Below, one piece after another: positions 1-59,832 of a stretch of 64,000 bases of DNA. The translations under genes and the position numbers were made by a program. The DNA is from an uncultured Candidatus Saccharibacteria bacterium (GTDB taxonomy: Bacteria; Patescibacteriota; Minisyncoccia; Phycocordibacterales; UBA12088). The DNA lies in assembly GCA_964562615.1 (NCBI GenBank), contig CAZLUD010000003.1, positions 2,885-66,884 on the forward strand. Reading direction: 5' to 3'. The first letter of the stretch is position 1. Each line of letters starts with the position of its first letter. Under the pieces are notes generated by a model that searched no databases, had not been told where the DNA came from, and was given only the letters and a program-made list of their open reading frames with translations.

Positions 1-3000
1 ACCTTGCAAGCTGGTGATGCCAATCATCAAATTACGTTTGGTGATACTACAGTTTTCACGACTTGGCATAATTTTAAGTTTGATAAGAATAACGGCGGCG
101 CGACAACAATTATGACGGTGGGCACGGTAGGAAGCAGTAACGTCGGCATCGGGACGACAACACCAACAGCACCTCTTCATGTGAGTGGAGCAAGTGGATA
201 TTCAATAGCAAAATTTAAATCACAATTCAGTGTAAGTGGTGTGATTGCCTCTGATAATAGTCAAGTGTTCTTTGGTCATGATTCAGGATCTGATGGAACA
301 TGGAGTAATGGTATGGCAGCAATTAGTAGCGGTGGAGTATTTTTTAACTCGGGTGGATCAGAACGGATGCGGATTACAAGCGCCGGCTCTGTCGGCATCG
401 GCACCACCTCCCCATGGGCAAAGCTTTCCATAAAGGGAAGTGGTACCAGTACCGGCAAGGCGTTTGCAGTTTCTGACTCGTCAAATGTGACAAGGTTTGT
501 GATCAATGATAATGGCAACGTCGGCATCGGGACGGCGTCGCCTAGCTCACTTCTCCACCTCTCTGCGGGGTCAAGTGGTGCGACTGCTATTGCAAATGCA
601 CAGCTAATACTTGAGGCATCAGGTTCTCGCTATATTCAGTTTGCGCTTCCAACTGCTAGCACCGGTGGTATCTTCTTTGGTGATTCTTCTGATAACGATC
701 GGGGAGGAATCACGTATCAAAACAGTACCGCCGCAGGATTGCCCGACACGATGACATTTGTTACGAATGGAAACGCGCGGGCGGTTATAAACAGCACCGG
801 CAATGTAGGTATTGGGACTACCACCCCAGCATATAAACTTGATGTGTTTAGTAACACATCAGCGTCGGCCGCCCGCTTTACCAGTAGTAATGATGGAGGT
901 GGGGTAGGGCTACGCGTAGATACCACCGACACAAACCATGGTGTTATCACTGCCGATTTTGATACCTTGGGCAACCCTACTTTAACCGTTGATTCAGCTG
1001 GCGGTACAATCGGATATTTTCAAATGAGGGAAAGCGGGACACAAGTAATAAGGCTTGGTCAAACATTTAGCGGAGGACAAGTACTGGCGACAAAAAGCAA
1101 TTTGCAAGTAGCAATTGATGCAGATAATGATGGCACTGGGGCGTTTGAAATTGCAAAAGGTAGTTGGAATGGGCGTGTTGGTTCAGACGGAACAAGTCTA
1201 TTCAGAGTTACTAATGCTGGCAACGTCGGCATTGGGACGACGAACCCAGGGGCTAAACTTTCCGTTGCGGCACCGAGCGGAAGCAACGTTGTTGATTTTG
1301 CCCTCTATAACGACGCGGGCTCAACGCAAATCTTAAAACTATCAAGCAACAGCGGCGCGGTAGCGTCTGTTACTTCCTACGGGGATATGAACCTCGTCAC
1401 TCAAAATAGCGGAGTTCTGTACTTGAAGCCAAATGGTTCATCGATGCTTTCACTTAATCCTGTCACGGGGAATTCATCATTCACGGGCTCTGTCGGTATT
1501 GGGATTACCACACCCCTTGATAGTTTGCATTTGTTTAAAAATGAACCAGGAATTATCTTAGAAGACGATGGGTGGGGTGCGGGTACAGGTGGTATGTGGA
1601 GGATGCGTCCTGCAAACAATGATGGAAGGTTTAAAATCGAACGCAACACATCTTCGGCGAGAGATTTTGCTACGTATGTGGAGGATTTGGTGATAACAAC
1701 CGCAGGTAATGTGGGAATTGGGACGACGGCACCACTTTCTCAGCTGCAAATCAAAAATGCAACAAACCAAGAAACACAGATTGGCGGCACTGCAGGAATC
1801 TATACAAATTCAACATACTTTACCGATTTATTTAGACTTGACTCAGCTATAAACTTTAGCCGCAGTTCAGATGGTGCGTTTTTGAACTCGATTTTTGGTT
1901 ACGAAACCACTGCTCTTGCTGAGAATAATCTCGGTCTTGTTGCGCGTCATGACATTAAGTTTGTTGTTGGAGCCACAGCTGACAGAGGAATGATTATAAA
2001 AAGCGGAGGCAATGTGGGTATTGGTACTACCGCACCTGGAAATGATTTGCATATCTCAGGAACAGAATCGATCATCAGACTACAAGCAACTGCGGTAAGT
2101 GGAAAGTCATGGGATATTGTCTCTGGTGGTGGCGGGGCACACACCGCAGGAGTGTTTGCGCTTCAAGACACTACAGGTGGCACAACACCATTTAAAATAA
2201 TCAACCCCACAGCTAATGATGTGCTTGCGGTGGTGGGGAGTAGTGTCGGTATTGGAACAAGTAATCCAGGTGTAAAACTCGAAGTAAATGGTGGAAGTAG
2301 CATCGCAGCAATTCGCCTCGCAACATCTGCCCTTACTAACGGGTTCGATATTGGCTATCTCAACGGAACTTCTGACCCAGCACTCTACCTCTTTAACAGA
2401 GAAAATGGAGCAATGATTTTGAGTACAAACGCCACAGAGAGAATGCGCATCACTAGTGGTGGCAACGTCGGTATTGGTACAACAAACCCGGGACAAAGAC
2501 TTCAGGTTGGCGCGGGGGTAGTATCAGATTTTTCTGAGGCAAATATATTTGATACAGCAACTGAAGCTATATCTATCGTTGGAGATGCAGGTGGTGAAGA
2601 TGCTGCTCTTGTACTGGGTGTAACAGATGGGACAAGAAATAGTAGAGCCAAATTCTTTATCTCTGATCAAAAAGAGTGGGGATTGTGGCAAACATGGTCT
2701 TCTGGAGGAGATCAAGATTTTGTTCTTGGTATGGGAGCTGGTGGAGAAAGGTTAAGAGTCACCAGTGGGGGGAGTGTCGGTATTGGCACCTCCACACCAA
2801 CTACTGGTAAATTTGTTATCGCTGCTGGTCATAACGCAAATGCGCTTGTATTAGAGAATGTCGCCGTAGGAAAGTATTGGTCGGTGTATAACTACACCAA
2901 TAGCTCTGCGACAGATTTGCGATTCTACGAACAAAACTCAGGTGGTAATTCTTTGACCCTACAAGCAGGGGGTAATGTGGGTATAGGCACAGTAAATCCT

Positions 3001-5136
3001 ACTGCCAAACTTACAGTTGTAGGAGGTAATGTCCGAGTTGATACTAATCAAGGAGTAGAATTTGGCGGAGCAAACAACTTTATTTATGGAAACGAAACAA
3101 GTGATTTTATTGCACTTGTTACCAACAACACGGAAGCAATGCGAATGTTAAGTAACGGATATGTCGGTATTGGCACCACCTCGCCATCACAAAAACTTGA
3201 TGTTGCTGGCATTATTGCGGTAAGTGGACAGGCAGCCCTATGGTCTGATTCTTCTTATATTTATGTGGGTGATATTGCGGGAGGGGATGGATATCGAAGC
3301 TTGGTACTACGCAGTAATGATACAGAACAGATGCGTATTACCACTGCGGGTAACATTGGTATCGGCACCACCACCCCTACGGCAACAAGTAATAACCGAG
3401 CACTTTCTATCTATGGAACATGGACCTCAAGTATTGACTTGGGCGGTAACGGTGCTTATCGACACCTTACTCTAAGCACAGACGGCAGCGGAAATGGATA
3501 CCTTACAGCAAACAGTGCAAAAAGTCTCTATCTTGGATCAGACAATGCAACACGAATTACACTACACGCAAACGGTAATGTTGGCATCGGGACGACGGTG
3601 CCACAAAGTAGATTGGAGGTGATTGGCGCTGGATCAGACCAGGAAGCATTAACGTTGCGTAATGTATCAGGGGGTGGAAAGCTGGCGCTAGGTGCCAGAA
3701 CCACAACCGGAGAAGCGTTTTTGCAAGGATTAACCAATGGTGGCTCAGCTAACGCGTTACTTCTTAATCCAAACGGGGGTAATGTGGGTATTGGGACAAC
3801 AACACCTACCAGTGGCAAACTAGTTATTGCAGGTAGCGATGATCTTGTTGCGCTTGCGGTTACCAATACATCAGCTATGACCGCAAGTTTTGAACTTGGT
3901 CAGACCTTGCAAGGGGGGAACTCTATTCCATATCTTCGAACTCTTCGAGGTGGTGACAACGCCAGTTTTCGAATTTATGCGGGCGGTACCGCTCTCTCAG
4001 GTACTCCTGCATTGACAGTGCGGTATAACGGCAACATCGGCATCGGGACGACGACGCCAGGGGCGAAATTACAAGTGAACTATGATGGAGGGGCAACAGC
4101 TGCTCTCATAAGTGAAACAGTTGCGTCCTTTAGTAATACCTCTGCAACTACGGATAATGCTTACATAAGTATCCAATCAGGAAATGCGGCAGAAGCAGCA
4201 ATTGTATTTGGAGATACGGACGATGATAACCGAGGATATCTAAGATATGTAAACGGCGCGACTGATTACTTCTCGATTGCTGTTGCTGGAGAAAAAGTAA
4301 GAGTTCAGCAGGACGGCAACGTCGGCATCGGCACCACCACTCCATGGCGCACCCTCTCCGTCACCGGCACCGTCGGCTTTGATGGTCTCACCGGCTCCAC
4401 CGGAGCCGGGTCACTATGTCTCTCATCAAGCAAACAAGTGGTATACAACAGTGCATCAGACAGCTGTCTTCCATCACTAAGAGAAACAAAGCACGATATA
4501 GCAGCCCTCGCACTCTCAGCTACCGAAGTACTCTCTACCATAGAACCAGTATCATTTATATATAATGAGAGTGATGGCAGAGTCCGCTACGGCTTTATCG
4601 CAGAAGATGTCGCTGCAGTAGACCCTCACCTTGCTACCTATAACGCCTCAAGTACCATTTCTGGTATAGACGATAGAGCTATGGTGTCTCTTCTTGTGAA
4701 GGGGTTTAAGGAGGTGTGGAACGAGGTGGTGATGGTAAAAAATAGTGTGGTAGCGGTAACCAGCAGGGTAGATGAGCATGATAGAGAAATAGCAGAGCTG
4801 AAGGCGCGTATTGCTGCTCTTGAATCAACACAGGCTCCTGAAGAAGGAGAAGAAGAAACTCCTACCGACACAACACCCCCCACCATCACCATCACCGGCA
4901 ACAACCCCGCACAACTAACCGTAGGAGATAGCTATGCCGACCTAGGCGCAATTGCAATTGATGATAGTGGCACTGCAATCCTGCGCACCTACGTTAGAGG
5001 TATAGAGGTAACGGCAGTATCTATTGATACCTCAGTAGCAGGGGAGCATGCAGTGGTGTATGTCGCGACTGACCTTGCAGGCAACAGTGCGACGAGTACG
5101 AGGGCGGTGGTGGTGGAAGAGGTGATCCTTCCATAG
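1..5136 (+). CDS. Giant repeat fibre protein, 5'-truncated at the window edge (>1710 aa). It has about 18 copies of a 70-100 aa unit centred on G-N-V-G-I-G-T-T-x-P. The C-terminus carries a peptidase S74-like intramolecular chaperone (tail-fibre auto-processing) domain followed by a DUF5011/Ig-like domain
   Basis: ORF 4..5136 is open to the window start. The motif GNVGIGTT[TSAN]P recurs about 18 times. C-terminal SLRETKHDI...GFIAEDV...LLVKGFKEV fits the S74 chaperone consensus (SDxRxKxNI...GFIAQEV...LIEAIKEL). The last ~80 aa (TPPTITITGNNPAQLTVGDSYADLGAIAIDDSG) resemble DUF5011. Confidence 0.7.
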   Translation, partial: TLQAGDANHQITFGDTTVFTTWHNFKFDKNNGGATTIMTVGTVGSSNVGIGTTTPTAPLHVSGASGYSIAKFKSQFSVSGVIASDNSQVFFGHDSGSDGTWSNGMAAISSGGVFFNSGGSERMRITSAGSVGIGTTSPWAKLSIKGSGTSTGKAFAVSDSSNVTRFVINDNGNVGIGTASPSSLLHLSAGSSGATAIANAQLILEASGSRYIQFALPTASTGGIFFGDSSDNDRGGITYQNSTAAGLPDTMTFVTNGNARAVINSTGNVGIGTTTPAYKLDVFSNTSASAARFTSSNDGGGVGLRVDTTDTNHGVITADFDTLGNPTLTVDSAGGTIGYFQMRESGTQVIRLGQTFSGGQVLATKSNLQVAIDADNDGTGAFEIAKGSWNGRVGSDGTSLFRVTNAGNVGIGTTNPGAKLSVAAPSGSNVVDFALYNDAGSTQILKLSSNSGAVASVTSYGDMNLVTQNSGVLYLKPNGSSMLSLNPVTGNSSFTGSVGIGITTPLDSLHLFKNEPGIILEDDGWGAGTGGMWRMRPANNDGRFKIERNTSSARDFATYVEDLVITTAGNVGIGTTAPLSQLQIKNATNQETQIGGTAGIYTNSTYFTDLFRLDSAINFSRSSDGAFLNSIFGYETTALAENNLGLVARHDIKFVVGATADRGMIIKSGGNVGIGTTAPGNDLHISGTESIIRLQATAVSGKSWDIVSGGGGAHTAGVFALQDTTGGTTPFKIINPTANDVLAVVGSSVGIGTSNPGVKLEVNGGSSIAAIRLATSALTNGFDIGYLNGTSDPALYLFNRENGAMILSTNATERMRITSGGNVGIGTTNPGQRLQVGAGVVSDFSEANIFDTATEAISIVGDAGGEDAALVLGVTDGTRNSRAKFFISDQKEWGLWQTWSSGGDQDFVLGMGAGGERLRVTSGGSVGIGTSTPTTGKFVIAAGHNANALVLENVAVGKYWSVYNYTNSSATDLRFYEQNSGGNSLTLQAGGNVGIGTVNPTAKLTVVGGNVRVDTNQGVEFGGANNFIYGNETSDFIALVTNNTEAMRMLSNGYVGIGTTSPSQKLDVAGIIAVSGQAALWSDSSYIYVGDIAGGDGYRSLVLRSNDTEQMRITTAGNIGIGTTTPTATSNNRALSIYGTWTSSIDLGGNGAYRHLTLSTDGSGNGYLTANSAKSLYLGSDNATRITLHANGNVGIGTTVPQSRLEVIGAGSDQEALTLRNVSGGGKLALGARTTTGEAFLQGLTNGGSANALLLNPNGGNVGIGTTTPTSGKLVIAGSDDLVALAVTNTSAMTASFELGQTLQGGNSIPYLRTLRGGDNASFRIYAGGTALSGTPALTVRYNGNIGIGTTTPGAKLQVNYDGGATAALISETVASFSNTSATTDNAYISIQSGNAAEAAIVFGDTDDDNRGYLRYVNGATDYFSIAVAGEKVRVQQDGNVGIGTTTPWRTLSVTGTVGFDGLTGSTGAGSLCLSSSKQVVYNSASDSCLPSLRETKHDIAALALSATEVLSTIEPVSFIYNESDGRVRYGFIAEDVAAVDPHLATYNASSTISGIDDRAMVSLLVKGFKEVWNEVVMVKNSVVAVTSRVDEHDREIAELKARIAALESTQAPEEGEEETPTDTTPPTITITGNNPAQLTVGDSYADLGAIAIDDSGTAILRTYVRGIEVTAVSIDTSVAGEHAVVYVATDLAGNSATSTRAVVVEEVILP

Positions 5137-5162
5137 GGATATGGTTGTGATAGGGTGGTGGT

Positions 5163-5456
5163 ATGAAAGAAGCACTCATCCTCGTGACCGGAAAGGTACA
5201 AGGGGTATTTTTTAGAGAATTTGTCCACGATACCGCAGAATCGCTTGGTGTGGTGGGGAGAGTATCAAATGAAAAAGACGGTTCGGTGAGGGTTGTTGCG
5301 CAGGGATATGAGGCAATACTGAAGAAATTTATTGCAAAAGTAGAGGAAGGAAATGGACGTTCAGATATTTCATTTGTGCAAGTACTGTGGCAAAAGGAGC
5401 TATCTGAAACCTTTACCTACTTTGACATAGTTACTACTACTGATGACACCAAATAA
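5163..5456 (+). CDS. acyP: acylphosphatase
   Basis: VTGKVQGVFFREFV is the acylphosphatase signature. The 97-aa size fits. Confidence 0.85.
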   Translation: MKEALILVTGKVQGVFFREFVHDTAESLGVVGRVSNEKDGSVRVVAQGYEAILKKFIAKVEEGNGRSDISFVQVLWQKELSETFTYFDIVTTTDDTK

Positions 5457-6129
5457 AACACCTACGTGTATCGGTATTATTATTGATGGTAACCGTCGAT
5501 GGGCGACAGAGCGTGGTTGCTCTACCTATGAGGGGCATCGAGAGGGGAGCGAGCGCATAAAAGATGTGGTGCTGTGGGCAAAGGAGGCGGGAGTGGCGCA
5601 CCTTATCATCTATACCTTTTCAACAGAAAACTGGAAGCGAAGTGAAGAAGAAAAGAAATATCTCTTTGAGATACTTGAAAGTGCTATTGATACCTATGTA
5701 CAAGAGCTCGCACCCCATGGAGTGAAAATACGGTGCATAGGGCAACGAGAGAGATTTTCAAAAACATTTCAAGAAAAGATACACAATGCAGAAGTGCTCA
5801 CACAACAACACACCGCATGCACGGTTACCTTTGCTCTCTCGTATGGTGGTAGAGCTGAAATAACAAGCGCGGTTAACACGCTGCGTGTGGCGGATAAAAA
5901 AGAAGTAACCGAGGAGGATATCACAAATGCTATGTGGACTAGTGGTATCCCTGATCCTGACATCATTATTCGTACCGGTGGAGAAAAGCGCCTCTCTGGA
6001 TTTTTGCCATGGCAATCTGTATATGCAGAGCTGTTTTTTGTCGATGAGTACTGGCCGGCATTTTCAAAAGAGACATTTACCGCCATACTGAGCGAATATG
6101 GTAATAGAGAAAGACGGCGGGGTGCCTGA
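5443..6129 (+). CDS. uppS: undecaprenyl diphosphate synthase (isoprenyl transferase)
   Basis: The DGNRRWA and FSTENWKR motifs are present. The 228-aa size fits. Confidence 0.9.
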   Translation: MTPNKTPTCIGIIIDGNRRWATERGCSTYEGHREGSERIKDVVLWAKEAGVAHLIIYTFSTENWKRSEEEKKYLFEILESAIDTYVQELAPHGVKIRCIGQRERFSKTFQEKIHNAEVLTQQHTACTVTFALSYGGRAEITSAVNTLRVADKKEVTEEDITNAMWTSGIPDPDIIIRTGGEKRLSGFLPWQSVYAELFFVDEYWPAFSKETFTAILSEYGNRERRRGA

Positions 6130-6850
6130 CCCGACAATACTATTTGAAAACCACGACATGGTGGTTGTTAATAAACCCGCGGGGCTTATGGTGCATCCCG
6201 ATGGTCGCACAACAGTACCTACGCTTGTTGATTGGGTGCTTCGCACCTTTCCTTTGGTTGTGGGCGTTGGTGAGCCTATTATTCTTCAGGATGGTACGGT
6301 TATAGAAAAGCCGGGGATTGTTCATCGGCTTGATACTGATACGTCTGGTGCGCTTGTGCTTGCAAAGACACAAGAAGCATTTGTACATCTGAAAGATCAA
6401 TTTAAAAATAGACACGTAAAAAAAACATACGTCGCGTTTGTCTGGGGAGAAATAAAAGACGATAGGATAACTATAGATAGACCAATAGGGAGGTCGGGAA
6501 GTGATTTTAGAAAATGGTCTGCTACCCGTGGCGCGCGAGGCACTCTGCGTGATGCGTGCACAGATATACGTGTACTACAGCGTACAAAAGAATATACCTA
6601 TATTGAGGCATTGCCAAAAACAGGACGCACCCATCAAATACGAGTGCATCTAAAGGCCATTAATCATCCCATTTTGTGCGATACACAGTACGCAAATTCG
6701 TCACAATGTGGCCTTGGGTTTACGCGGCAAGCGCTTCATAGTAGGGTGATTGAGATTGAAACCCCCTCCGGGGAACGGGTGCGGGTGGAGGCTCCACTCC
6801 CAAGGGATTTTGAAGAAGCGCTTCGTATTTTTACTAAAGAGATTGCCTGA
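6098..6850 (+). CDS. RluA-family pseudouridine synthase
   Basis: The HRLDTDTSGALVLAK catalytic motif is present, preceded by the typical VVVNKPAGLMVHP. Confidence 0.8.
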   Translation: MVIEKDGGVPDPTILFENHDMVVVNKPAGLMVHPDGRTTVPTLVDWVLRTFPLVVGVGEPIILQDGTVIEKPGIVHRLDTDTSGALVLAKTQEAFVHLKDQFKNRHVKKTYVAFVWGEIKDDRITIDRPIGRSGSDFRKWSATRGARGTLRDACTDIRVLQRTKEYTYIEALPKTGRTHQIRVHLKAINHPILCDTQYANSSQCGLGFTRQALHSRVIEIETPSGERVRVEAPLPRDFEEALRIFTKEIA

Positions 6851-6882
6851 TAAAAAAGTTCGTGGTATCGTACGCAAACATT

Positions 6883-7485
6883 ATGAAAACGGCAGAAATT
6901 CATACATCTATTAATATAGACTCCCGAAAGGAGATAGCTATCTCGTCTGGAGACACCGTTCGCGTGTATTCTAAGATTGAGGATAAGGGAAAGACTCGTA
7001 TACAGATGTTTGAGGGAGTGGTTATCGCGACCAAGCACGGCAACGAACCAGGCGCCACCTTTACTGTTCGTAGGTCTCAAGGAGGGTATGGCGTAGAGAG
7101 GGTGTTTCCACTATTTTCTCCACTTATAGATAAAATTGAGGTGGTAAAAAGAACAAGGGTAAAGCGAGCTAAGCTTTATTACATCAGAGACAAGGCATCT
7201 AAGGAGATACGACGACAGATGCGAAAGACACGCATTGTTGCTGAAGGTACCCTAAGTGAACAAGCAGAAGCTCGAAGAATTGAGGATGAAGCAGCTAAAG
7301 CGAAGGCAGAGATAGAACAAGCTGAAGCAGAAGCAAAGAGAATCGAAGACGAAGCTCGCGCTAAAGAAGAGGCAGAGCAAAAGGCAAAGGAGGAGGCAGA
7401 AAAAGCAGCAGCAGCACCTGAGGTTGTCGAAGAGGCACCGAAAGAAGAAACTGCTACTGAAGAAAAAAAGGAGGAAGAGAAGTAA
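6883..7485 (+). CDS. rplS: 50S ribosomal protein L19 with an ~90-aa Ala/Glu/Lys-rich C-terminal extension
   Basis: GDTVRVYSKI...RIQMFEGVVIA...TFTVRR...GVERVFPLFSPLIDKIEVVKRTRVKRAKLYYIRD aligns along the full length of L19. After that the protein runs on through low-complexity AEAKRIEDEA repeats. An alternative GTG start lies at 6862. Confidence 0.85.
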   Translation: MKTAEIHTSINIDSRKEIAISSGDTVRVYSKIEDKGKTRIQMFEGVVIATKHGNEPGATFTVRRSQGGYGVERVFPLFSPLIDKIEVVKRTRVKRAKLYYIRDKASKEIRRQMRKTRIVAEGTLSEQAEARRIEDEAAKAKAEIEQAEAEAKRIEDEARAKEEAEQKAKEEAEKAAAAPEVVEEAPKEETATEEKKEEEK

Positions 7486-11199: not shown

Positions 11200-13131
11200 A
11201 TGACAGAGGGTAGAAATGATTTCGCGGCACTTATCGAGCTCGATCGCCAGGAACGGCAGAAGAAGCACTGGCGTGGCACGCTCCTTGACTATCTGGATCT
11301 CGTCAAGGCGAACCCACGGCTCGCCGATTTCTCGCACAAGCGCATGTACGACATGATCATCGATCGCGGCACGGAGAGTGTCGACGTCGAGGCCGACCCG
11401 CGCGCCAAGCGTGTCTTCGGTGATCAGAGCCCGAAGACGTACGGGTTCTTCAAGGACGAGTTCTTCGGCATGGAACGCACGCTCGACAAGATCGTGCGCT
11501 ACTTCCACTCGTCCGCCATGGGCGGCGAGGAAGCTCGCCAAGTCCTCTATCTGATGGGGCCGGTCGGCTCGGGAAAGAGCTCTCTCGTTGACCGCCTCAA
11601 GCGTGGCCTCGAGGATCTCGACCCGATCTATGTGATCGAAGGCTCTCCGAACTACTCAAGCCCGCTCTGCCTTATCCCGCGCCACTTACGCGGCGCGTTT
11701 GAGGAGATGCTGGGCGTGCGAATAGAGGGTGACATCGACCCGATCACCAGACATCGCCTGATGAACGAGTTCGGCGGTCAGTACGAGAAGATGCCGGTTT
11801 GCACGATGTCCTTCTCGATACGAGCCAGGAAGGGTGTCGGTGTCGTCCCCCCGGTCGACCCGAACAACCAGGACACCTCGGTCCTGATCGGCTCGGAGGA
11901 TATCAGCAAGCTCGACCGCTTCTCAGAGGGTGATCCGCGGGTATTGGAGCTGAGTGGCGCCTTCAACGTCGGTAATCGCGGCATGGTGGAGTTCATCGAG
12001 GTCTTCAAGAACGAGACCGAATATCTTCACACCATGATCACGGCGACGCAGGAGAAGATGGTTCCTGCACCTGGTCGCCATGGCACCATCTACGTCGACA
12101 CCGTGATCGTCGCACACAGCAACGAGGCGGAGTGGCAACGATTCAAGGCCGACCACACCAACGAGGCGATTCTTGATCGTATCGTCGTCGTCAAGGTGCC
12201 CTACAATCTCCGCCTCTCGGAGGAGGTGAAGATCTATCGGAAGTTCCTCAAGCGTTCCCGCTTCGACCTCAAGATCTCGCCGCATACGCTCGAGATCGCG
12301 TCGATGTTCGCGATCCTGACACGGCTCGAGCCAACGGGAAAATGCGATCTCCTCACCAAGCTCAAGATCTACAATGGTGAGGAGGTCCTCGAAAAGGGTA
12401 GACCAAAGAAGATCACGGCGCACGAGCTTCGTGACGACATCAAGCGAGAGGGGCTCTTTGGCATCAGCACGCGCTTCGTCATGAAGGCCCTCGACACGGC
12501 CCTCACGCAGAACGGTGGGTCTATTCATCCCATCAATGTGCGCGAGGCGCTCATTGGCATGGTCAAGGAGACCGACCTGCCGGAGGACACGAAACGGCAG
12601 CATCTGGAGTTCCTCCAGGACACGCTCCACAAGGTCTACCTCGAGCTGCTAGAGAAGGACATCACCAAGGCGTTTGTCTTTAGCTTCAAGGATCAAGCGG
12701 AGACACTCTTCCAGAACTACCTCGACAATGCCGAGGCCTACGTGACCAAGACCAAGGTCAAGGATCACGTGACCAAGGAGGAGATGCAGCCCGACGAGGG
12801 GTTCCTCAAATCCATCGAGGAGCAGATCGCGATTATCGGCCCGGCTGCCGACGGCTTTCGCCAAGAGGTGATCGCATACCTCTGGTCCGGCATGCGTCGT
12901 GGTGAGACGCTGAGCTACTCCGCCTACGAGCCCTTGAAAGAGGCCATCGAAAAGAAGCTGATGAACTCGGTCCGTGACATCAGCCGCATCATCACCAAGT
13001 CGCGCACCCGTGACGAGGAGCAGCGGCAAAAGTACTCGGCGATGGTCGAGAATCTCCTCGAGCAGGGGTACAACGAGGAGAGCATCGACACAGTGCTGAA
13101 GTATGCCGCTAACCATCTCTGGAAGGACTGA
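11200..13131 (+). CDS. prkA: PrkA-family serine protein kinase (YeaG-like, AAA+ N-domain)
   Basis: 643 aa and collinear with E. coli YeaG. Walker A is LMGPVGSGKSSL. The gene is markedly GC-rich compared with its flanks. Confidence 0.85.
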   Translation: MTEGRNDFAALIELDRQERQKKHWRGTLLDYLDLVKANPRLADFSHKRMYDMIIDRGTESVDVEADPRAKRVFGDQSPKTYGFFKDEFFGMERTLDKIVRYFHSSAMGGEEARQVLYLMGPVGSGKSSLVDRLKRGLEDLDPIYVIEGSPNYSSPLCLIPRHLRGAFEEMLGVRIEGDIDPITRHRLMNEFGGQYEKMPVCTMSFSIRARKGVGVVPPVDPNNQDTSVLIGSEDISKLDRFSEGDPRVLELSGAFNVGNRGMVEFIEVFKNETEYLHTMITATQEKMVPAPGRHGTIYVDTVIVAHSNEAEWQRFKADHTNEAILDRIVVVKVPYNLRLSEEVKIYRKFLKRSRFDLKISPHTLEIASMFAILTRLEPTGKCDLLTKLKIYNGEEVLEKGRPKKITAHELRDDIKREGLFGISTRFVMKALDTALTQNGGSIHPINVREALIGMVKETDLPEDTKRQHLEFLQDTLHKVYLELLEKDITKAFVFSFKDQAETLFQNYLDNAEAYVTKTKVKDHVTKEEMQPDEGFLKSIEEQIAIIGPAADGFRQEVIAYLWSGMRRGETLSYSAYEPLKEAIEKKLMNSVRDISRIITKSRTRDEEQRQKYSAMVENLLEQGYNEESIDTVLKYAANHLWKD

Positions 13132-13330
13132 TTGATGATCAGTCCTTTCCAACAACAACAATTTTTTTATAGATTATTGAGACGTGAAAAGTCTCGATGG
13201 TCAGGGCGGGGTATAAAAATACCTCGCTAGCAAACTGAGCCATACAAGGAAACTTGTATGGCTCACATTCTTGTCATTTTTTTATAAAGATATATGCTCA
13301 AAAAAGTTGAACCACATGTGGGGGTTGCAC

Positions 13331-14533
13331 ATGACTACGGTCTTTCGACCTTACAACGAGACGGAAGCACTGCGATCTGATCGCAGTGCAGGTGATCGCA
13401 AGCGCCATCGCGAGAAGCTGCGGCGCTCGCTTAAGGACAACATTGCCGACATCATCGCCGAGGAGAGCATCATCGGCCGAGATCGAGACAAGGTGATCAA
13501 GGTGCCGATCCGTGGTGTGAAGGAGTATCGCTTCACCTTCGGCAACAATTCAGGCAGTGTCGGTGTTGGCGATGGGAATACAGAAGTTGGGGATATCGTC
13601 GGCCCTGCCGGACAGGGCGAGAAGGGTCAAGGGCCGGCCAGCAATCATCCGGGTCAGGATATCTACGAGACGGAGATCACGATCGACGAGCTGATCGACA
13701 TCATGTTCGAGGATCTGGAACTCCCCGATATGGAGCGGAAGATCCTCAAGGAGGCCCTCGCTGAGCGGACGAGTAAGCGCAAGGGTTACCGCAAGGCCGG
13801 CATTCGTGTGCATCTCGATCGCAAACGTACCATCAAGTCGAAGATTAGGCGGCGGATCGCTCAGGGCCTGCCACTCGTTGATAGTGAGGACGAGACCGAT
13901 TTGCCCGAACATGATGAACGCGAGACCAGCTTTCCTTTTCGCAAGGAGGATCTGACTTACCGCCGTCTGGTCGACGAGCCGCGCGAGGAAAGCAACGCGG
14001 TCGTCATCTGCATCATGGACACGTCGGGCTCGATGGACCGCTTGAAGAAGTATCTGGCCCGAAGCTTCTTCTTTCTGCTCTACCAATTCGTCCGCACGCG
14101 TTATGATCAGGTGAAGATCGTCTTTGTTGCACATCAAAGCGAAGCCGCCGAGGTGACGGAGGACGAGTTCTTTCACAAGGGCGAGTCCGGCGGCACGCTG
14201 ATATCGTCGGGCTACAAGAAGGCGCTCGAGGTAATAGAGCAGCGATTTCACCCGGAGCATTGGAATATCTATGCATTCCACTGCTCGGATGGCGATAATT
14301 TTGGGAGTGACAACGAGGAGACGCTTGCGTGCGCCCAGCAGCTCTGCGACGTCACCAACCTCTTCGGCTATGGCGAAATCAAGCCGATTGGCGGCAACTA
14401 CCATGAGAGCTCGATGCTCGAGCGCTTCCGTCAGATGTGCCGCGACAATTTCCATACCGCGCTGATCAAGCGACGCGAGGATATCTGGCCGGCCTTCGCC
14501 AACCTCATGAAGAAGGATAAAACTAATTACTAA
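13331..14533 (+). CDS. yeaH: YeaH/YhbH family protein (DUF444, vWA-like)
   Basis: Gly-rich GQGEKGQGPASN segment. ELIDIMFEDLELPDM matches YeaH. The vWA-like segment is IMDTSGSM. The GC shift begins at the ATG at 13331; the ORF track's 13271 start lies in an AT-rich spacer. Confidence 0.8.
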   Translation: MTTVFRPYNETEALRSDRSAGDRKRHREKLRRSLKDNIADIIAEESIIGRDRDKVIKVPIRGVKEYRFTFGNNSGSVGVGDGNTEVGDIVGPAGQGEKGQGPASNHPGQDIYETEITIDELIDIMFEDLELPDMERKILKEALAERTSKRKGYRKAGIRVHLDRKRTIKSKIRRRIAQGLPLVDSEDETDLPEHDERETSFPFRKEDLTYRRLVDEPREESNAVVICIMDTSGSMDRLKKYLARSFFFLLYQFVRTRYDQVKIVFVAHQSEAAEVTEDEFFHKGESGGTLISSGYKKALEVIEQRFHPEHWNIYAFHCSDGDNFGSDNEETLACAQQLCDVTNLFGYGEIKPIGGNYHESSMLERFRQMCRDNFHTALIKRREDIWPAFANLMKKDKTNY

Positions 14534-14550
14534 TTGAGGGCAATGCCTCG

Positions 14551-14584
14551 AAGCCGTGCGTGGTACGCACGGCTTTTCTTTTTA
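14551..14584 (+). terminator. rho-independent terminator after yeaH
   Basis: aaGCCGTGCGtggtaCGCACGGCttttcttttt. Confidence 0.7.
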
Positions 14585-14648
14585 TATTTTTGCTATACAG
14601 TGCCGAAAGAAGCCCACTCATGATGAGTGGGTAAAAAGGAGAGTTGTA

Positions 14649-16049
14649 ATGTCTGAATGGAGCTTAGAGGACCTCGAGCGATGGGACGAGCGGATCCAGG
14701 TGAAGGTGGCCAACTACGGGCTCGATTGCTATCCTCAGGAGTTTGAGGTCTGCGATCAGAATGCCATGCTCGGCTACATGGCCTATCACGGCATGCCATC
14801 GCACTACCCGCACTGGTCCTATGGCAAGGCATACGAGCAACAGAAGACCATGTACGACTACGGGGTCACGGGCCTCCCGTATGAGCTGGTCATCAACTCC
14901 GACCCTTGCCTTGCCTACCTCATGCGCGACAACAGTCTGTGCCTACAGATCCTGACGATCGCTCATGTGTACGGGCACAACGACTTCTTCAAGAACAACT
15001 TCACCTTCACCAGCGCCACGCGCGCCAGCGAGACGATTGCATCCTTCAAGACCAGGGCCGATCGGATCCGCCGCTACATGAAGGATCCATCGATTGGCGC
15101 TGATGCGGTCGAGCGCTTCCTCGATGCGGCGCATGCCCTTGCATTCAACCGCACGCGGAACCTGGCGATCAAGAAGCTCGATGCCGAGGGTCAACGCGAG
15201 CGGCTGCGGGATCTTGCTGAGCCAAGGCGCGATCCGTTTGCTGCGATCCACAAAACCGCGGTGCATAACCCGCCCGATCTCTCTTGCTTCCCACTAGAAC
15301 CCGATCAGGACATTCTCTTGTTCGTCCGCGACAACAACAAGGATCTGGCCGCCTGGCAGCGGGACATCCTCACCATCGTAGACGAGGAGACCTGCTACTT
15401 CCTCCCTCAGATTGATACAAAGATCATGAACGAGGGCTGGGCCAGTTTCTGGCACCACAAGCTCATGAACGCGATCGATCTACCGCCCGAGATCCACATG
15501 GAGTTTCTGGTCCGCCACAACCAGGTGGTCTGCCCACATCCAGGCGGCCTCAATCCGTACCATGTTGGCTTTGTCATCTGGTCTGCCCTCGAAAAACGCT
15601 TCGGCGGGGTCGAGTCGAAGGACTGCGTCGCGAATCTCATGCAGATCCGCGAGGCGGAGCGCGATGTCTCGTTCCTGCGTCGTTTTCTCACGCCTGAACT
15701 GATGCATGAACTTGACCTCTTTGCCTACAGACCTCAAGGTGAACACCTCGTCGTGACTGAGGTGAGCGATAAAGATGATTGGGAGCATGTTAAGAACCAG
15801 CTACTCGCGCAGATCGGCTCGAACAGCTTCCCTGTCATCAAGATCGTTGATGCAAATAGTGAGGGGAAGGGTATCCTTCATCTCACTCACGAGCATGATG
15901 GCCGAGATCTCGATGTTACATCTGCAATAAAGACTCTGGTCCATCTTGAGACTTTGTGGGGTAGGGATGTCAGTCTTTTGACATGCATCGGTGCGTCTAA
16001 GAAGAAGATAAAAGTACACAGAGGAGATTCCGAAGTCAAAAACGCTTAG
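14649..16049 (+). CDS. spoVR: SpoVR family protein (YcgB-like)
   Basis: LDCYPQEFEV...MPSHYPHWSYGKAY...LAYLMRDN...IAHVYGHNDFFKNN matches the SpoVR/YcgB family. An AAGGAG RBS precedes the ATG at 14649. Confidence 0.85.
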   Translation: MSEWSLEDLERWDERIQVKVANYGLDCYPQEFEVCDQNAMLGYMAYHGMPSHYPHWSYGKAYEQQKTMYDYGVTGLPYELVINSDPCLAYLMRDNSLCLQILTIAHVYGHNDFFKNNFTFTSATRASETIASFKTRADRIRRYMKDPSIGADAVERFLDAAHALAFNRTRNLAIKKLDAEGQRERLRDLAEPRRDPFAAIHKTAVHNPPDLSCFPLEPDQDILLFVRDNNKDLAAWQRDILTIVDEETCYFLPQIDTKIMNEGWASFWHHKLMNAIDLPPEIHMEFLVRHNQVVCPHPGGLNPYHVGFVIWSALEKRFGGVESKDCVANLMQIREAERDVSFLRRFLTPELMHELDLFAYRPQGEHLVVTEVSDKDDWEHVKNQLLAQIGSNSFPVIKIVDANSEGKGILHLTHEHDGRDLDVTSAIKTLVHLETLWGRDVSLLTCIGASKKKIKVHRGDSEVKNA

Positions 16050-16144: not shown

Positions 16145-16217
16145 GGCGACTATGGTGTAATGGTCAACACAGGGGTTTGTGGAGCCCCTGATCTGGGTTC
16201 GATTCCCAGTAGTCGCC
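16145..16217 (+). tRNA. tRNA-His (anticodon GTG) with a genomically encoded G-1
   Basis: G-GCGACTA...anticodon loop tTTGTGGa...TTCGATTCC...TAGTCGC-C. The 7-bp acceptor stem is perfect. The extra 5' G pairs with the discriminator C73. Confidence 0.8.
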
Positions 16218-16270
16218 CAAATCGGCCGACCGAATACGCGAATGCGTTTCGGTCGTTGCCGTTTGGAGAG
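16200..16270 (+). repeat. 71-bp direct repeat, copy 1: the tRNA-His T-arm and acceptor 3' end plus 50 nt of downstream hairpin
   Basis: cgattcccagtagtcgcccaaatcggccgaccgaatacgcgaatgcgtttcggtcgttgccgtttggagag is identical to 16385-16455. Confidence 0.85.
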
Positions 16271-18573: not shown

Positions 18574-18625
18574 TCTATACACAGCGCACACATAGAGCAT
18601 TACGATTGTTTGCTATACTGTGTGT

Positions 18626-19900
18626 ATGAAAAAAAGCGTATATTACCTATCCTTTATAGGAGTGTGTGTTATTGCAATAACGACACTTGTTCCTTTTACA
18701 TTTGGTCAAACAACCATTAGTGATATCCAGCGATCAATTCAACAAAAAGAGCAAGAGATACTTATTTTGCAGGAGCAATTAAAAGCCCTACGAGAAACAC
18801 TCTCAAAGGCGCAAAAGGATCAATCTACACAACTCTCTACTGCAACAGGAGGAAGTCCCTCTGGGCTTGTACTCATGCGTGAGTACACCGCCTTCACGCG
18901 AGCAATTGGATACGGCTCAACCGGTGAGGATGTAAAGAGTCTTCAGCTTATTCTCAATGAACTGGGGTACTATCCAGAGGCGGTGTTTAGCGGCTACTTT
19001 GGCGAGATGTCTGTTACCGCACTAAAACGATTTCAGTCAGCAAAGGGAATCGTCTCTAGTGGAGATGCAAGTACTACTGGGTATGGCATGCTTGGACCTT
19101 CTACAAGAAAGGCGATAAATGCGATTATTTCTGGATCAGTTGTACCAGGCATAGTGAGCAACGATCCGGTGAAGGATACTTCAACAAGTGGCAGTTCAAG
19201 TAGTAGTAAGGATGAAGGAAACACCTCATTTTATGCAGGCAAGGTCATTCTAAAGAAGGCGAGTGCTAGCAATGCAACAGCAAAGGATGAATATATTGAA
19301 ATAGAGATAGATGATAAGGCTGGATCAGATGTCATTCTTGCAGGATGGAAGGTACAGAGCACTATCACTAACAATGTGATTACGCTTGATACGGTATCGC
19401 CATTGTTTAGATTTGGTAGGTCTGGCACTACAGATGAGCTTAGACTGAAACCAAAGGACACGCTCACCATAGTGACGGGAATGTCACCACTTACGCAAAA
19501 GAGCTTTAGAGAAAACAAGTGTATGGGCTATTTGCGCCACTACTACTCGTTTAGCCCTTCAATTAGCTCATCATGTCCAAAACCAGAAGATGAATTAGAG
19601 GCGTACGGCAAAATCCCACTCACTGATGATGCATGCAGAACATATGTATCAAGACTTTCGTCATGCAAAGCACCACTGTCATCAGAAATTCCAACCACCG
19701 TATCACTTGCGTGTAGGTATTTTGTTGAAAACAACATCAACTACAATGCGTGTATCGACAAGCACCTCTCAGATGCAGATTTTTGGAAAGACGAGTGGCG
19801 CATATATCTAAATCGTTCAGATGAATTATGGAGAAAGAACAGAGAAGAGCTGGTGTTGCTTGATCAGTTTGGAAATCAGGTTGATAAGGTAACGTACTAA
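18626..19900 (+). CDS. secreted protein with a coiled coil, a peptidoglycan-binding (PG_binding_1) domain, a lamin-tail-like (LTD) domain and a Cys-rich C-terminus
   Basis: Signal-like N-terminus. The PG-binding segment is GSTGEDVKSLQLILNELGYY...ALKRFQ. DEYIEIEIDDKAGSDVILAGWKV resembles the LTD signature. Confidence 0.55.
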   Translation: MKKSVYYLSFIGVCVIAITTLVPFTFGQTTISDIQRSIQQKEQEILILQEQLKALRETLSKAQKDQSTQLSTATGGSPSGLVLMREYTAFTRAIGYGSTGEDVKSLQLILNELGYYPEAVFSGYFGEMSVTALKRFQSAKGIVSSGDASTTGYGMLGPSTRKAINAIISGSVVPGIVSNDPVKDTSTSGSSSSSKDEGNTSFYAGKVILKKASASNATAKDEYIEIEIDDKAGSDVILAGWKVQSTITNNVITLDTVSPLFRFGRSGTTDELRLKPKDTLTIVTGMSPLTQKSFRENKCMGYLRHYYSFSPSISSSCPKPEDELEAYGKIPLTDDACRTYVSRLSSCKAPLSSEIPTTVSLACRYFVENNINYNACIDKHLSDADFWKDEWRIYLNRSDELWRKNREELVLLDQFGNQVDKVTY

Positions 19901-59734: not shown

Positions 59735-59832
59735 ATTGAGAGCTATATTGACGTATACTTTTTTTAATTGTACCGTTGTCACGGGTAAGGTACTTACCCA
59801 GAACCTTAACATCCACACGAAAGGAAGCTTCG

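Follow-up and report, generated by a model that had tools for sequence, protein, structure and literature searches.

A very long repeat fibre protein with an export signal and an internal S74 domain in a patescibacterium

The gene at the start of the window (the whole stretch of 64,000 nucleotides analysed here) belongs to P0001, a protein of 2332 aa that combines a Sec-type export signal, a long shaft of degenerate repeats homologous to the MAT fibres of Bdellovibrio bacteriovorus, and an internal peptidase S74 chaperone domain followed by a long helix and an Ig-like domain. We favour, with moderate confidence, a reading in which P0001 is a very long surface fibre of a Paceibacteria-like cell that is exported by the Sec route, frees itself from its S74 domain by self-cleavage, binds host cells and has its shaft swapped between strains. 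This reading builds on the architecture and homologies of the protein, a conserved catalytic dyad, the export signal, a cellular gene context and allelic mosaicism. Trimer formation and self-cleavage would apply to P0001 by analogy with its homologues, as would N-terminal anchoring and host binding, for which the lifestyle of the phylum offers a further argument.

In the literature searched on how the ultrasmall, host-dependent Patescibacteria locate their hosts and attach to them, type IV pili and unspecified 'adhesins' are the only structures named, and we found there no description of S74 or MAT-type fibres in these bacteria. The gene ties a large family of proteins, most of them unnamed (of 8000 candidates scored, at least 3791 match at E ≤ 1e-10, and many come from CPR genomes), to the sole experimentally characterised system in which fibres of this kind recognise other bacteria, and its predicted cleavage site, two catalytic residues and conserved anchor end are handles for experiments.

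Gene extent, export signal and genomic setting

Frame 1 of the window is free of stop codons from nt 1 to the stop at 5134-5136, giving 1711 codons. The preliminary description had reported an ORF of more than 1710 aa still open at the window edge, and the full-length protein, P0001, is 100% identical to this ORF and confirms it. The window holds the 3' three-quarters of the gene; a TTG at nt 4 that was listed as a start codon is an artefact of the ORF lister, as P0001 continues 621 aa (1863 nt) further upstream. The architecture of S74 domain, helix, Ig-like domain and 18 repeat motifs cannot be chance. The positions of all features are given in Table 1.

Table 1. Features of the fibre gene, in window coordinates (nt), with amino acids numbered along the window ORF
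Feature	Position (nt)	Strand	Basis or remark
Fibre gene, 3' part: 1711 codons and stop	1..5136	+	First 621 codons upstream of the window
Beta-rich shaft, 18 copies of (E-R-M-R-I-x-x-x-)G-N-V-G-I-G-T-T-x-P-x-x-K-L-x-V	136..4350	+	Motif positions, PDB profile matches; hypervariable between strains
Predicted pre-cleavage tip GNVGIGTTTPWRTLSVTGTVGFDGLTGSTGAGSLCLSSSKQVVYNSASDSCLP, aa 1439-1491, two conserved Cys	4315..4473	+	92.5% identical to the L008 orthologue; conserved across distant tails
Recombination breakpoint, inside the last GNVGIGTTTPW motif	4322..4322	+	L001 comparison
Predicted catalytic motif S-L-R-E-T-K; Ser1492 (nt 4474-4476), Lys1497 (nt 4489-4491)	4474..4491	+	11-tail alignment
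Peptidase_S74 / intramolecular chaperone core, aa 1492-1557, including GFIAEDV	4474..4671	+	Pfam, profile, AlphaFold2
52-residue helix, aa 1558-1609	4672..4827	+	AlphaFold2, module residues 99-150, pLDDT ~83-88
Acidic Pro/Thr-rich linker, aa 1610-1627	4828..4881	+	Low pLDDT at model residues 152-160; 50% identity between orthologues
Bact_surface_Ig-like PF16403, aa 1628-1706	4882..5118	+	Pfam, AlphaFold2, Foldseek

The N-terminus and signal peptide, sought upstream of the window, are both present in full-length P0001. The signal is of the Sec type (MRTTLFCIVMFALAPWVAGA|SS), a call based on a hydropathy heuristic (hydrophobicity peaks at 2.38 over 12 residues) and on inspection of the sequence. 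Behind it come a domain of ~100 aa, a spacer rich in Pro and Thr, a short helix and the first of the repeats, which together form an N-terminal module of ~400 aa. Pfam returned no domain for aa 1-402 of P0001, and a metagenome scan with the same N-terminal 402 aa gave no confirmed match. A separate contig scan for the fibre locus returned only a distant Saccharibacteria locus. The signal argues for a cellular protein, since tail fibres of phages are assembled in the cytoplasm and would need none. Among relatives, export signals accompany extended tails after the S74 domain (10/19, compared to 0/28 where S74 is terminal). Such an extended tail is the rule among exported patescibacterial relatives.

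The fibre gene ends 26 nt before an acylphosphatase-UppS-RluA-L19 series, and no terminator was found between the two. Downstream of the fibre the window carries the acylphosphatase, UppS, the pseudouridine synthase, L19, tRNAs and eight aminoacyl-tRNA synthetases, and further genes include those for RecA, FtsK, RecO, S6 and a sigma factor. A search for phage genes in these 59 kb found none, in agreement with the housekeeping context originally proposed. Rfam and tRNA scans returned nothing associated with the fibre gene. Judged by its ArgRS, the organism is a patescibacterium, because the named relatives of that enzyme are all Patescibacteria/Paceibacterota. It occurs in the samples JGI 3300043411, SRR12762274, SRR12762285, SRR8640622, SRR35185575 and SRR21875703. 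The position of the fibre gene is conserved at a syntenic orthologous locus (L008) in a genome with 87% ArgRS identity. Homologues in complete Campbellbacteria and Giovannonibacteria genomes and on large Paceibacterota and Nomurabacteria contigs likewise have cellular neighbours, namely SecDF, Mur ligase, RF1, GatB, Obg, MurJ, LepA, rpsP, trmD and MreB, with rpsP-rimM-trmD in the Giovannonibacteria region. No structural cluster of a virion or injection system was found in the 59 kb downstream or around five homologues on long contigs. The closest known phage proteins are 24-29% identical to P0001, and viral contigs match the S74 part only, none of them matching the Ig-like part. As far as can be seen over the 59 kb downstream, then, P0001 is not a prophage fibre.

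The repeat shaft and its variation between strains

The repeat motif (...ERMRITxxGNVGIGTTxPxxKLxV...) occurs 18 times in the window and 23 times in full-length P0001. Within the window, copies lie at aa 46, 129, 172, 267, 407, 496, 569, 670, 747, 821, 924, 991, 1053, 1117, 1192, 1260, 1344 and 1439, at a spacing of 43-140 aa with a median of ~77. The count of about 18 units in the preliminary description therefore stands, although its range of 70-100 aa per unit was too narrow. When all 23 copies are aligned, two Gly and the Pro (G, G, P) are invariant and I, T and L nearly so. At the DNA level, copies share only 60-83% identity across 35-63 nt, and TRF found no tandem array in the repeat region, so the repeats are old and degenerate, with no recent duplications. 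No second fibre copy or silent cassette was found in the window.

A profile of the repeat matched only five sequences in the PDB, all of them Bdellovibrio MAT fibres (8OND, E=2.2e-24; 8OML, 1.4e-11; 8OJN, 1e-9; 8OL4, 2e-8; 8ON4, 4e-5), and single-sequence searches also match MAT structures. The motif of P0001 fits the published consensus of the MAT 'capping loop', V-G-G/N-pi-x-x-P-x-x-x-L (PMC10769870). NCBIfam contained zero matching models. Modelled as a monomer, four repeats come out all-beta at low confidence (pLDDT 59). The only significant Foldseek match of this model was the Bd2133 fibre (E=1.4e-4), at a TM-score of only ~0.2. Given that score and the low confidence of the shaft model, we have set this match aside as proof of the fibre fold.

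Comparison of strains indicates that the shaft is exchanged. In the L001 strain, the DNA is 98.5% identical over window positions 4322-6761, and 5' of nt 4322 the shaft is unrelated. The P0089 allele shows the other end of the gene: it is ~100% identical across the first ~400 aa, with one variable patch at aa ~240-360, and falls below 40% past the first full GNVGxGT motif, so that shaft and C-terminal module both differ. With the L008 orthologue the shaft shares mostly <50% identity, compared to 75-93% for neighbouring genes. From these alignments we read P0001 as a cassette-diversified surface fibre. A wholly different shaft in near-identical strains is what one would expect of a specificity determinant, and it marks P0001 as a good candidate for host recognition.

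The C-terminal module and its predicted cleavage

As anticipated in the preliminary description, Pfam identifies Peptidase_S74 (PF13884), at window aa 1494-1544 with a score of 29.0 bits (cutoff 22). Its Ser-x4-Lys dyad is intact. A profile built from 11 tails matches phage fibre chaperone domains of solved structure (8JOV, E=8.5e-11; 6F45, E=3.4e-6), and Foldseek matches to a model of the C-terminal module include the ICA domain of MyRF (7DC3). Ser1492 and Lys1497 are invariant among the 11 tails, and in the alignment they fall on the Ser and Lys of the motifs SDERLK (8JOV) and SDRRIK (6F45). However, Leu takes the place of the near-universal Asp behind the catalytic Ser, and an Arg lies at +2 instead of +3. 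With this non-canonical SLRETK motif, cleavage could be weakened or absent. The AlphaFold2 monomer model is of low confidence around the dyad.

The S74 core continues into a helix of 52 residues that is only 46% identical between P0001 and the L008 orthologue. Rather than being the separate coiled coil that had been placed after S74, this helix is the terminal one of the S74/ICA domain in lengthened form, and it probably makes a trimeric coiled coil. In MyRF, the C-terminal helix, or triple coiled coil, drives trimerisation. The Ig-like domain beyond the linker had also been predicted, as DUF5011, and the search recovered it under its present name: PF16403 scores 40.5 bits (cutoff 27) at window aa 1629-1705, and NCBI calls relatives 'DUF5011 domain-containing'. 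The domain is modelled as a beta-sandwich (pLDDT 77-91 by 10-residue block), and it finds Ig/PKD-like domains in Foldseek, including 9KVU, SraP 4M02 and 2KPN. Between orthologues it is 80% identical. The protein ends in ...VVVEEVILP, with neither an LPXTG motif nor a membrane anchor.

All S74 proteins studied cut the bond directly before the catalytic Ser, at the domain's N-terminal edge. In Bd3182 the cut is at S782, leaving A781 as the last residue of the mature tip (PMC10769870). MyRF is cut at P586|S587, and there cleavage is abolished by mutation of the Ser or the Lys but of no other residue. By analogy, the bond cut in P0001 is expected at CLP|SLRETK, that is Pro1491|Ser1492, ahead of the S74 domain. 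The preliminary description had instead put the cut between the coiled coil and the Ig-like domain, which does not agree with these precedents. A cut at P1491|S1492 would mean that the Ig-like domain leaves together with the chaperone, in a released fragment of 220 aa that would comprise S74, helix and Ig-like domain. It would produce peptides ending in ...VVYNSASDSCLP (...SASDSCLP) or starting with SLRETKHDIAALALSATEVLSTIEPVSFIYNESDGR, and the segment ahead of it, to judge by sequence, would become the C-terminus of the mature fibre. Two observations count against the favoured reading here. The Ig-like domain is kept at 80% identity although it would be discarded on cleavage, and the distal tip is the most conserved part of the mature fibre (92.5% identity), which runs opposite to the usual receptor-binding tips.

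Known fibre systems and alternative readings

The closest known system is that of the MAT fibres of B. bacteriovorus, in particular the S74 subgroup with Bd3182 (Caulton et al. 2024, PMC10769870), for which the reference structures used were of C-terminal fragments (8OND, 8OML, 8OJN/8ONB/8ONC, 8OL4/8ONF and 8ON4). MAT fibres are cellular and signal-bearing like P0001, and the two have in common the repeat E-R-M-R-I-x-x-x-G-N-V-G-I-G-T-x-x-P-x-x-x-L, in the S74 subgroup the chaperone/protease with its Ser-x4-Lys dyad, and a mosaic evolution where one end stays conserved and other parts are exchanged. A producer that lives attached to other bacteria is a further likeness. [quoted passage not shown] Its S74 domain is internal, followed by the lengthened helix, linker and Ig-like domain, and that of MATs is terminal; the catalytic motif is S-L-R-E-T-K instead of S-D-x-x-x-K. 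The part swapped between strains is the shaft in P0001 and mainly the tip in MATs. Unlike Bdellovibrio, Patescibacteria are not known to have an outer membrane. They are absent from the MAT-bearing taxa listed in PMC10769870.

Phage fibres (endosialidase K1F endoNF, T5 pb1, the long tail fibre distal subunit 6F45 and the putative fibre 8JOV) have a homologous S74 domain with aligned Ser and Lys and a terminal helix, and cyanophage and pelagiphage fibres and PHROG tail-fibre families resemble P0001 at the level of the repeat. The idea that phage fibre assembly chemistry is reused in a cell is supported by an experimentally characterised precedent, the Bdellovibrio MAT fibres, which the preliminary description did not name. 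Phage fibres lack an export signal, carry S74 at the end and are encoded among virion genes; P0001 differs in all three respects, and identity to them is only 24-30%. Finally, the eukaryotic MyRF/MrfA (7DC3) resembles P0001 in its internal S74/ICA domain, Pro|Ser bond and Ser-x4-Lys dyad, and its C-terminal triple coiled coil may have a counterpart in the predicted 52-residue helix. MyRF/MrfA carries a DNA-binding domain upstream and, downstream, a transmembrane anchor; it lacks a long repeat shaft, and its sequence relationship to P0001 is confined to the ICA domain.

From these comparisons, a course of assembly can be proposed. The signal peptide would take the chain out of the cell, and the ~400-aa N-terminal module, which is identical between alleles, would anchor it on the cell surface. 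The S74 domain and long helix would gather three chains and nucleate the folding of an intertwined beta-helical shaft, and the Ser1492-Lys1497 dyad would then cut CLP|SLRETK to release the fragment of S74, helix, linker and Ig-like domain. The mature fibre of ~2090 aa, on the order of 100-150 nm long if extrapolated from the ~550 Angstrom model of Bd3182, would bind surface structures of a host or partner cell. Between strains, shafts would be swapped like cassettes that join at the first and the last of the conserved motifs.

A different fate of the C-terminal module was considered, in which S74 trimerises and folds the fibre but does not cut, or cuts poorly, so that the helix and Ig-like domain stay as a distal adhesive tip. 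This would suit the lack of the canonical Asp after Ser in SLRETK, the conservation of the Ig-like domain at the background rate (80%), the occurrence of PF16403 on bacterial surface proteins and carbohydrate-active enzymes, and the extended post-S74 tail usual in exported patescibacterial relatives. We nevertheless regard it as unlikely, given that the Ser and Lys essential for MyRF cleavage are invariant in the 11 tails and that MyRF, which also has domains past its S74, still cleaves, likewise at P|S. Moreover, the relatives P0023, P0034 and P0063 have low-complexity acidic tails instead, and the Ig-like domain is thus dispensable for the family. The function of an exported fibre might also be another one, either a protective, antigenically variable coat whose turnover reflects escape from phages and grazers, or an adhesin for particles or biofilms. 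Shaft replacement between conserved ends is a signature of surface antigens under escape selection as well, and the distal tip is conserved instead of variable. We hold this to be quite improbable, as the only characterised proteins with the fibre repeat are prey-binding fibres (PMC10769870) and receptor-binding fibres of phages make up the more distant relatives. Furthermore, PMC12206443 describes all cultivated Patescibacteria as episymbionts that must recognise a host.

It is very improbable that P0001 instead serves as tail fibre to a prophage, a tailocin or an extracellular contractile injection system, with the other genes upstream of the window, even though PHROGs tail-fibre families match it strongly (E=1e-68 and 1e-66), NCBI labels relatives 'tail fiber domain-containing protein', and a LexA/S24-like gene, possibly a phage-type repressor, lies directly 5' of the fibre in two relatives. 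P0001 has a Sec signal, found in 0/28 of the terminal-S74 relatives without cellular hallmarks; the 59 kb downstream hold no phage genes, and just 26 nt, with no terminator found, separate the fibre from the acylphosphatase-UppS-RluA-L19 genes. Its position is conserved in a second genome, and none of the five homologues on long contigs has phage structural genes around it. At most ~5.9 kb of contig is left upstream, which is too little for a tail module and capsid, and the closest phage proteins are 24-29% identical.

We can tentatively suggest a wider reading. Patescibacteria may possess their own lineage of phage-like, MAT-type fibres as host-range determinants, with shaft cassettes swapped within species by recombination at the first and last conserved motifs. 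The internal S74-helix-Ig module, which exported relatives have and phage-type ones lack, would be an adaptation to extracellular assembly. This module would gather three secreted chains, fold the fibre from its C-terminus and then cut itself off.

Metagenome assemblies tend to break in fibre genes of this kind, and the genes are mis-called. The 3' end of the fibre gene is a breaking point in five independent public assemblies, which also speaks for its diversification, and the neighbouring acylphosphatase is found elsewhere only on contigs <5 kb that end inside the fibre gene or right at it. P0002 (978 aa, L008) was rejected as a short orthologue, as a run of N interrupts the gene and a 1157-aa in-frame ORF reaches the contig end; a scaffold gap had turned a giant protein into a '978-aa' one. 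Three 'small genes' upstream of P0002 were rejected as antisense artefacts. Another gene call joined fibre and a LexA-like fragment into one, and a LexA-like fragment 5' of P0089 scored 16.6 bits, under the Pfam cutoff of 23.7, and is a lead only.

A probable MAT-type fibre of a patescibacterium

The fibre ORF runs in frame 1 of the + strand from window nt 1, with no stop up to the stop codon at 5134-5136. A protein search recovered the full-length form, P0001, a 2332-aa protein on a 71,748-bp NCBI contig that is 100% identical to the window ORF product (P0001 residues are numbered as window residue n+621). The preliminary description had proposed a search for the N-terminus and a signal peptide, and the start is seen in P0001: it reads MRTTLFCIVMFALAPWVAGA, followed after the signal cleavage point by SSY. 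Judged by inspection and hydropathy, it has the form of a Sec signal peptide: the n-region is short and basic, and a hydrophobic core and an A-x-A-like site come next. Behind the signal come a region of about 100 aa, for which no family match was found, a Pro/Thr-rich spacer of about 70 aa, a short helix-like stretch and then the repeats. P0001 contains 23 copies of the motif [G/S]-x-[V/I/L]-G-[I/V]-G-T-x-x-P, of which 18 fall in the window, spaced there by 43-140 aa; E-R-M-R-I-T-x-x usually precedes the motif and x-x-K-L-x-V usually follows. These counts, together with the Pfam matches tabulated below, bear out the original observation of a repeat fibre with S74 and Ig-like domains. The repeats are ancient and degenerate, because at the DNA level the copies are just 60-83% alike over 35-63 nt and form no tandem array.

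A profile of the 23 repeat copies was compared with every PDB sequence and gave five matches, all to Bdellovibrio bacteriovorus fibres: Bd2133 8OND (2.2e-24), 8OML (1.4e-11; the Bd1334 entry by title), 8OJN (1e-9; its sequence is common to the Bd3182 entry 8ONC), 8OL4 (2e-8) and 8ON4 (4e-5). The mosaic adhesive trimer (MAT) family, named by Caulton et al. (PMC10769870), comprises signal-peptide-bearing, surface-displayed, intertwined trimeric beta-helical fibres; strain HD100 has 21 MATs, 13 of which end in an S74 domain, and one member binds Proteus-type glycans. The MAT capping-loop motif, V-G-G/N-pi-x-x-P-x-x-x-L, is the motif repeated in P0001. The MATs listed in other organisms by the same paper are from predators and Omnitrophica, with no Patescibacteria. 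A four-repeat monomer model was all-beta and of low confidence, and its sole significant fold match was Bd2133, with a TM-score too low for proof; the homology of the repeats to MATs is drawn from the sequence profile. P0001 is a variant of the MAT/S74 fibres, in a phylum for which the literature searched gave no description of such fibres.

The C-terminal module and its predicted self-cleavage

The families to be checked, Peptidase_S74 and DUF5011, both scored above their Pfam cutoffs, the latter as PF16403, a type whose relatives carry the NCBI name 'DUF5011 domain-containing'. Alignment A1, built from the tails of 11 relatives, shows no variation at Ser33 and Lys38 of the C-terminal module (Ser1492 and Lys1497 by window numbering, within S-L-R-E-T-K). 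The A1 profile matches the solved chaperone domains of two phage fibres, 8JOV (E=8.5e-11) and 6F45 (E=3.4e-6), with the Ser and Lys aligned to those of SDERLK and SDRRIK, respectively; S-L-R-E-T-K has Leu after Ser where Asp is usual, and Arg at +2 instead of +3. An AlphaFold2 model of the module (mean pLDDT 75.5) comprises a small alpha/beta S74 core, a single helix and an Ig-like beta-sandwich. Confidence is low for 44 residues around the Ser-Lys dyad, as would be expected of a segment that threads into the neighbouring chain in a trimer. Foldseek with this model returned Ig/PKD-like domains, with the MyRF ICA domain lower in the ranking. In an exhaustive search, the 252-aa module had 9434 matches at E<=1e-3, of which 466 reached E<=1e-30. 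Of the top 150 cluster representatives, about two dozen match the whole S74-helix-Ig cassette in one piece (44-56% identity), and the remainder match mostly via multi-copy Ig-like domains alone.

Bd3182 cleaves itself at the catalytic S782, and its mature tip ends at A781 (PMC10769870). In MyRF the scissile bond is P586-S587, a complete loss of cleavage is seen with S587A and K592A only, and trimerisation is driven mainly by the C-terminal triple coiled coil. Because Bd3182 and MyRF are cut directly before the catalytic Ser, the bond predicted by homology for the fibre lies between Pro1491 and Ser1492, upstream of S74; the preliminary description had wrongly expected it further on, past the coiled coil and before the Ig-like domain. 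Trimerisation and cleavage would follow the pattern of these homologues, and the predicted cut would free a 220-aa piece containing S74, helix, linker and Ig-like domain. The Leu after Ser and the displaced Arg call for caution over this prediction.

Among the 120 best relatives, 53 have a recognisable S74 motif no more than 500 aa from the end, and 47 of these are complete gene calls. In one group the domain forms the terminus, with 83-101 aa from Ser to end (28 complete) and the motif S-D-x-x-x-K in 29 of 30, the exception being STRTLK; in the other, 141-439 aa follow the Ser (19 complete). A hydrophobic N-terminal signal is present in 10/19 complete extended-tail calls versus 0/28 with terminal S74 (Fisher p=1.8e-5), and several of the nine extended-tail relatives without one are truncated or mis-started gene calls. 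P0001, with its export signal and extended tail, differs on both counts from the terminal-S74 relatives. The post-S74 extensions are mosaic: the helix is present in all, followed in varied combinations by a Cys-containing element (KLCVxxxCxT..QL..LL), a GITLYDxxTGxxYC mini-domain, low-complexity linkers and the Ig-like domain. The mini-domain, which is conserved and of about 35 aa with two Cys (...EKPSGITLYDEVTGEPYCLKxxNGxxxxxxGxC...), recurs behind the S74 helix in the patescibacterial fibres P0005, P0012, P0019, P0028, P0073 and P0104, and had no Pfam name in the scans made.

Coordinates of the fibre gene, its predicted elements and other features (window positions unless a locus is named)
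Feature	Position	Strand	Detail
Fibre gene, 3' part	1-5136	+	
Predicted scissile bond	nt 4473/4474		by homology
Peptidase_S74	aa 1494-1544		29 bits, cutoff 22 (Pfam)
Predicted helix	aa 1558-1609		52 residues; AlphaFold2 model
Predicted Ig-like beta-sandwich	aa 1628-1706		behind disordered linker; AlphaFold2 model
Bact_surface_Ig-like PF16403	aa 1629-1705		40.5 bits, cutoff 27 (Pfam)
PrkA/DUF444/SpoVR trio	11200-16049	+	
tRNA-His	16146-16218		
Candidate surface protein	18620-19900	+	426 aa
IleRS-like ORF	35418-38876	+	1152 aa
Candidate surface protein	39491-41452	+	653 aa
Candidate surface protein	54655-58209	+	1184 aa
Two class II synthetases	59776-61149; 61168-62478	+	Asp/Asn/Lys-type
Region with fibre homologue, Giovannonibacteria	L026 5671-15146		complete genome
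Run of N inside fibre ORF	L008 3317-3490		
Continuation of fibre ORF	L008 4-3477		1157 more codons, to contig edge
Peptidase_S24 gene, Nomurabacteria	L027 7411-7854		147 aa
P0068 neighbourhood, Paceibacterota	L009 4436-17977		

Genomic setting and variation of the shaft

The fibre gene is followed by acylphosphatase, whose start lies 26 nt behind the fibre stop; no terminator was found in this gap. UppS, a pseudouridine synthase, L19 and tRNA-Leu come next. Further downstream lie a FIST/histidine-kinase/response-regulator set, PrkA-DUF444-SpoVR and tRNA-His; ribonucleotide reductase, SHMT, ArgRS, IleRS, RecO, a class II aminoacyl-tRNA synthetase (tRNA-synt_2b core), MetRS, TatD and S6; and a sigma factor, RecA, FtsK and two class II synthetases. 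The cellular housekeeping context first proposed is upheld over the 59 kb read downstream, which are all cellular with no phage gene; at most 5.9 kb of contig precede the gene start. Matches to sequenced phages (cyanophage and pelagiphage fibres) are at no more than 24-29% identity, via the repeats, and IMG/VR contigs match the S74 part only, at about 30% identity, with none matching the Ig-like part.

Named relatives of the window's ArgRS are all Patescibacteria/Paceibacterota (about 52-57% identity). A second genome, represented by locus L008 (ArgRS 87% identical), shares the order fibre, acylphosphatase, UppS, RluA, L19, FIST, HK, RR. Fibre homologues are flanked by PAP2, SecDF, Mur ligase and RF1 in a complete Campbellbacteria genome, by Obg, GatB, MurJ and LepA on a 562-kb Paceibacterota contig, and by cellular genes on a 997-kb Nomurabacteria contig. 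The Giovannonibacteria homologue lies directly behind rpsP-KH-x-trmD, and the window fibre (region 1-7485) sits just upstream of rplS. In many bacteria rpsP, rimM, trmD and rplS form a single operon. The two fibre genes adjoin the two halves of that operon, and this points to a place on the chromosome that is old and conserved.

A JGI metagenome contig (L001) has 98.5% DNA identity to window 4322-6761. The 948 nt at its start lack any DNA similarity to the window and encode a shaft 26-33% identical to any part of P0001, with the junction inside the last GNVGIGTTTPW motif. Relative P0089 is mostly 98-100% identical to P0001 over residues 1-400, with a patch at about 240-360 at 48-80%, and 10-45% identical beyond the first full GNVGVGT motif (residue 403); counted from the shared start its length is about 1209 aa, and its S74 is of a different subtype. 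Compared with the L008 orthologue, identity is 92.5% in the pre-cleavage tip, 79% in the S74 core, 80% in the Ig-like domain, 46% in the helix and 50% in the linker, against a background of 75-93% for neighbouring genes. The shaft is mostly below 50%, with a few blocks at 70-82% in a different order. Public assemblies tend to break here: five independent ones stop within 60 nt of the 3' end of the fibre gene, which fits population heterogeneity at this locus. From these comparisons, the gene appears to have a conserved anchoring end and a conserved maturation end, with the shaft replaced wholesale.

The closest database relative, P0002 at L008, is not a true 978-aa protein: its length is a scaffold-gap artefact, as a run of N lies inside an ORF that continues to the contig edge. 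Three opposite-strand 'genes' called there lie inside the fibre ORF. Errors of this kind are probably frequent in public MAGs for the giant repeat genes of the family.

The best-supported reading is that P0001 is an exported patescibacterial MAT-like fibre, with an S74 module that serves its folding and maturation and with recombination as the source of its diversity. The outline of the preliminary description, a cellular surface fibre with S74, therefore stands, with the cleaved bond instead expected before that domain. Conservation of the N-terminal module suggests that it would anchor the fibre. The MAT and phage precedents, and the life of cultivated Patescibacteria as episymbionts, suggest that the fibre may bind a host cell. 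Although predicted to be cut off, the Ig-like domain is conserved; possibly, the post-S74 extension gathers three secreted chains at the cell surface before it is discarded. Within the mature fibre, conservation is highest at the distal tip and the shaft is variable; binding sites may lie along the shaft. The domain arrangement and allelic pattern make the fibre a concrete, testable candidate for host recognition.

Other features of the window and of related loci

In two relatives, the gene just before the fibre is of the LexA/S24 type. Residues 1-108 of P0089 are a LexA-like HTH fragment running in frame into the fibre signal peptide (LexA_DNA_bind, 16.6 bits, below the Pfam cutoff), and 146 nt separate the end of the Nomurabacteria Peptidase_S24 gene from the fibre. 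Since the first 400 or so residues of P0089 are nearly identical to P0001, a LexA-like gene may lie upstream of the window's fibre too. In L009, P0068 is directly preceded by a 519-aa fn3 protein and directly followed by a 533-aa Gly_rich_2 protein, with an HTH_17/MerR-type gene and five genes without family match around them; this may be a small surface-protein island.

The window encodes three other candidate envelope or surface proteins, all lacking the fibre motif: the 1184-aa protein has a peptidoglycan-binding domain, the 426-aa protein has one together with a sub-threshold lamin-tail match, and the 653-aa protein is a DUF11 protein. The PrkA/DUF444 (YeaH-like)/SpoVR trio, which ends at a tRNA gene, has 55% G+C versus about 45% elsewhere in the window and may be a horizontally acquired island; at the syntenic L008 locus, DUF444 alone was called in this region. 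The two adjacent class II synthetases each carry an OB anticodon-binding domain. In the IleRS-like ORF, His_Phos_1 (aa 505-662, E=8e-34) lies between the class I catalytic halves, and a complete histidine-phosphatase domain inside an aminoacyl-tRNA synthetase is an unusual fusion or insertion.
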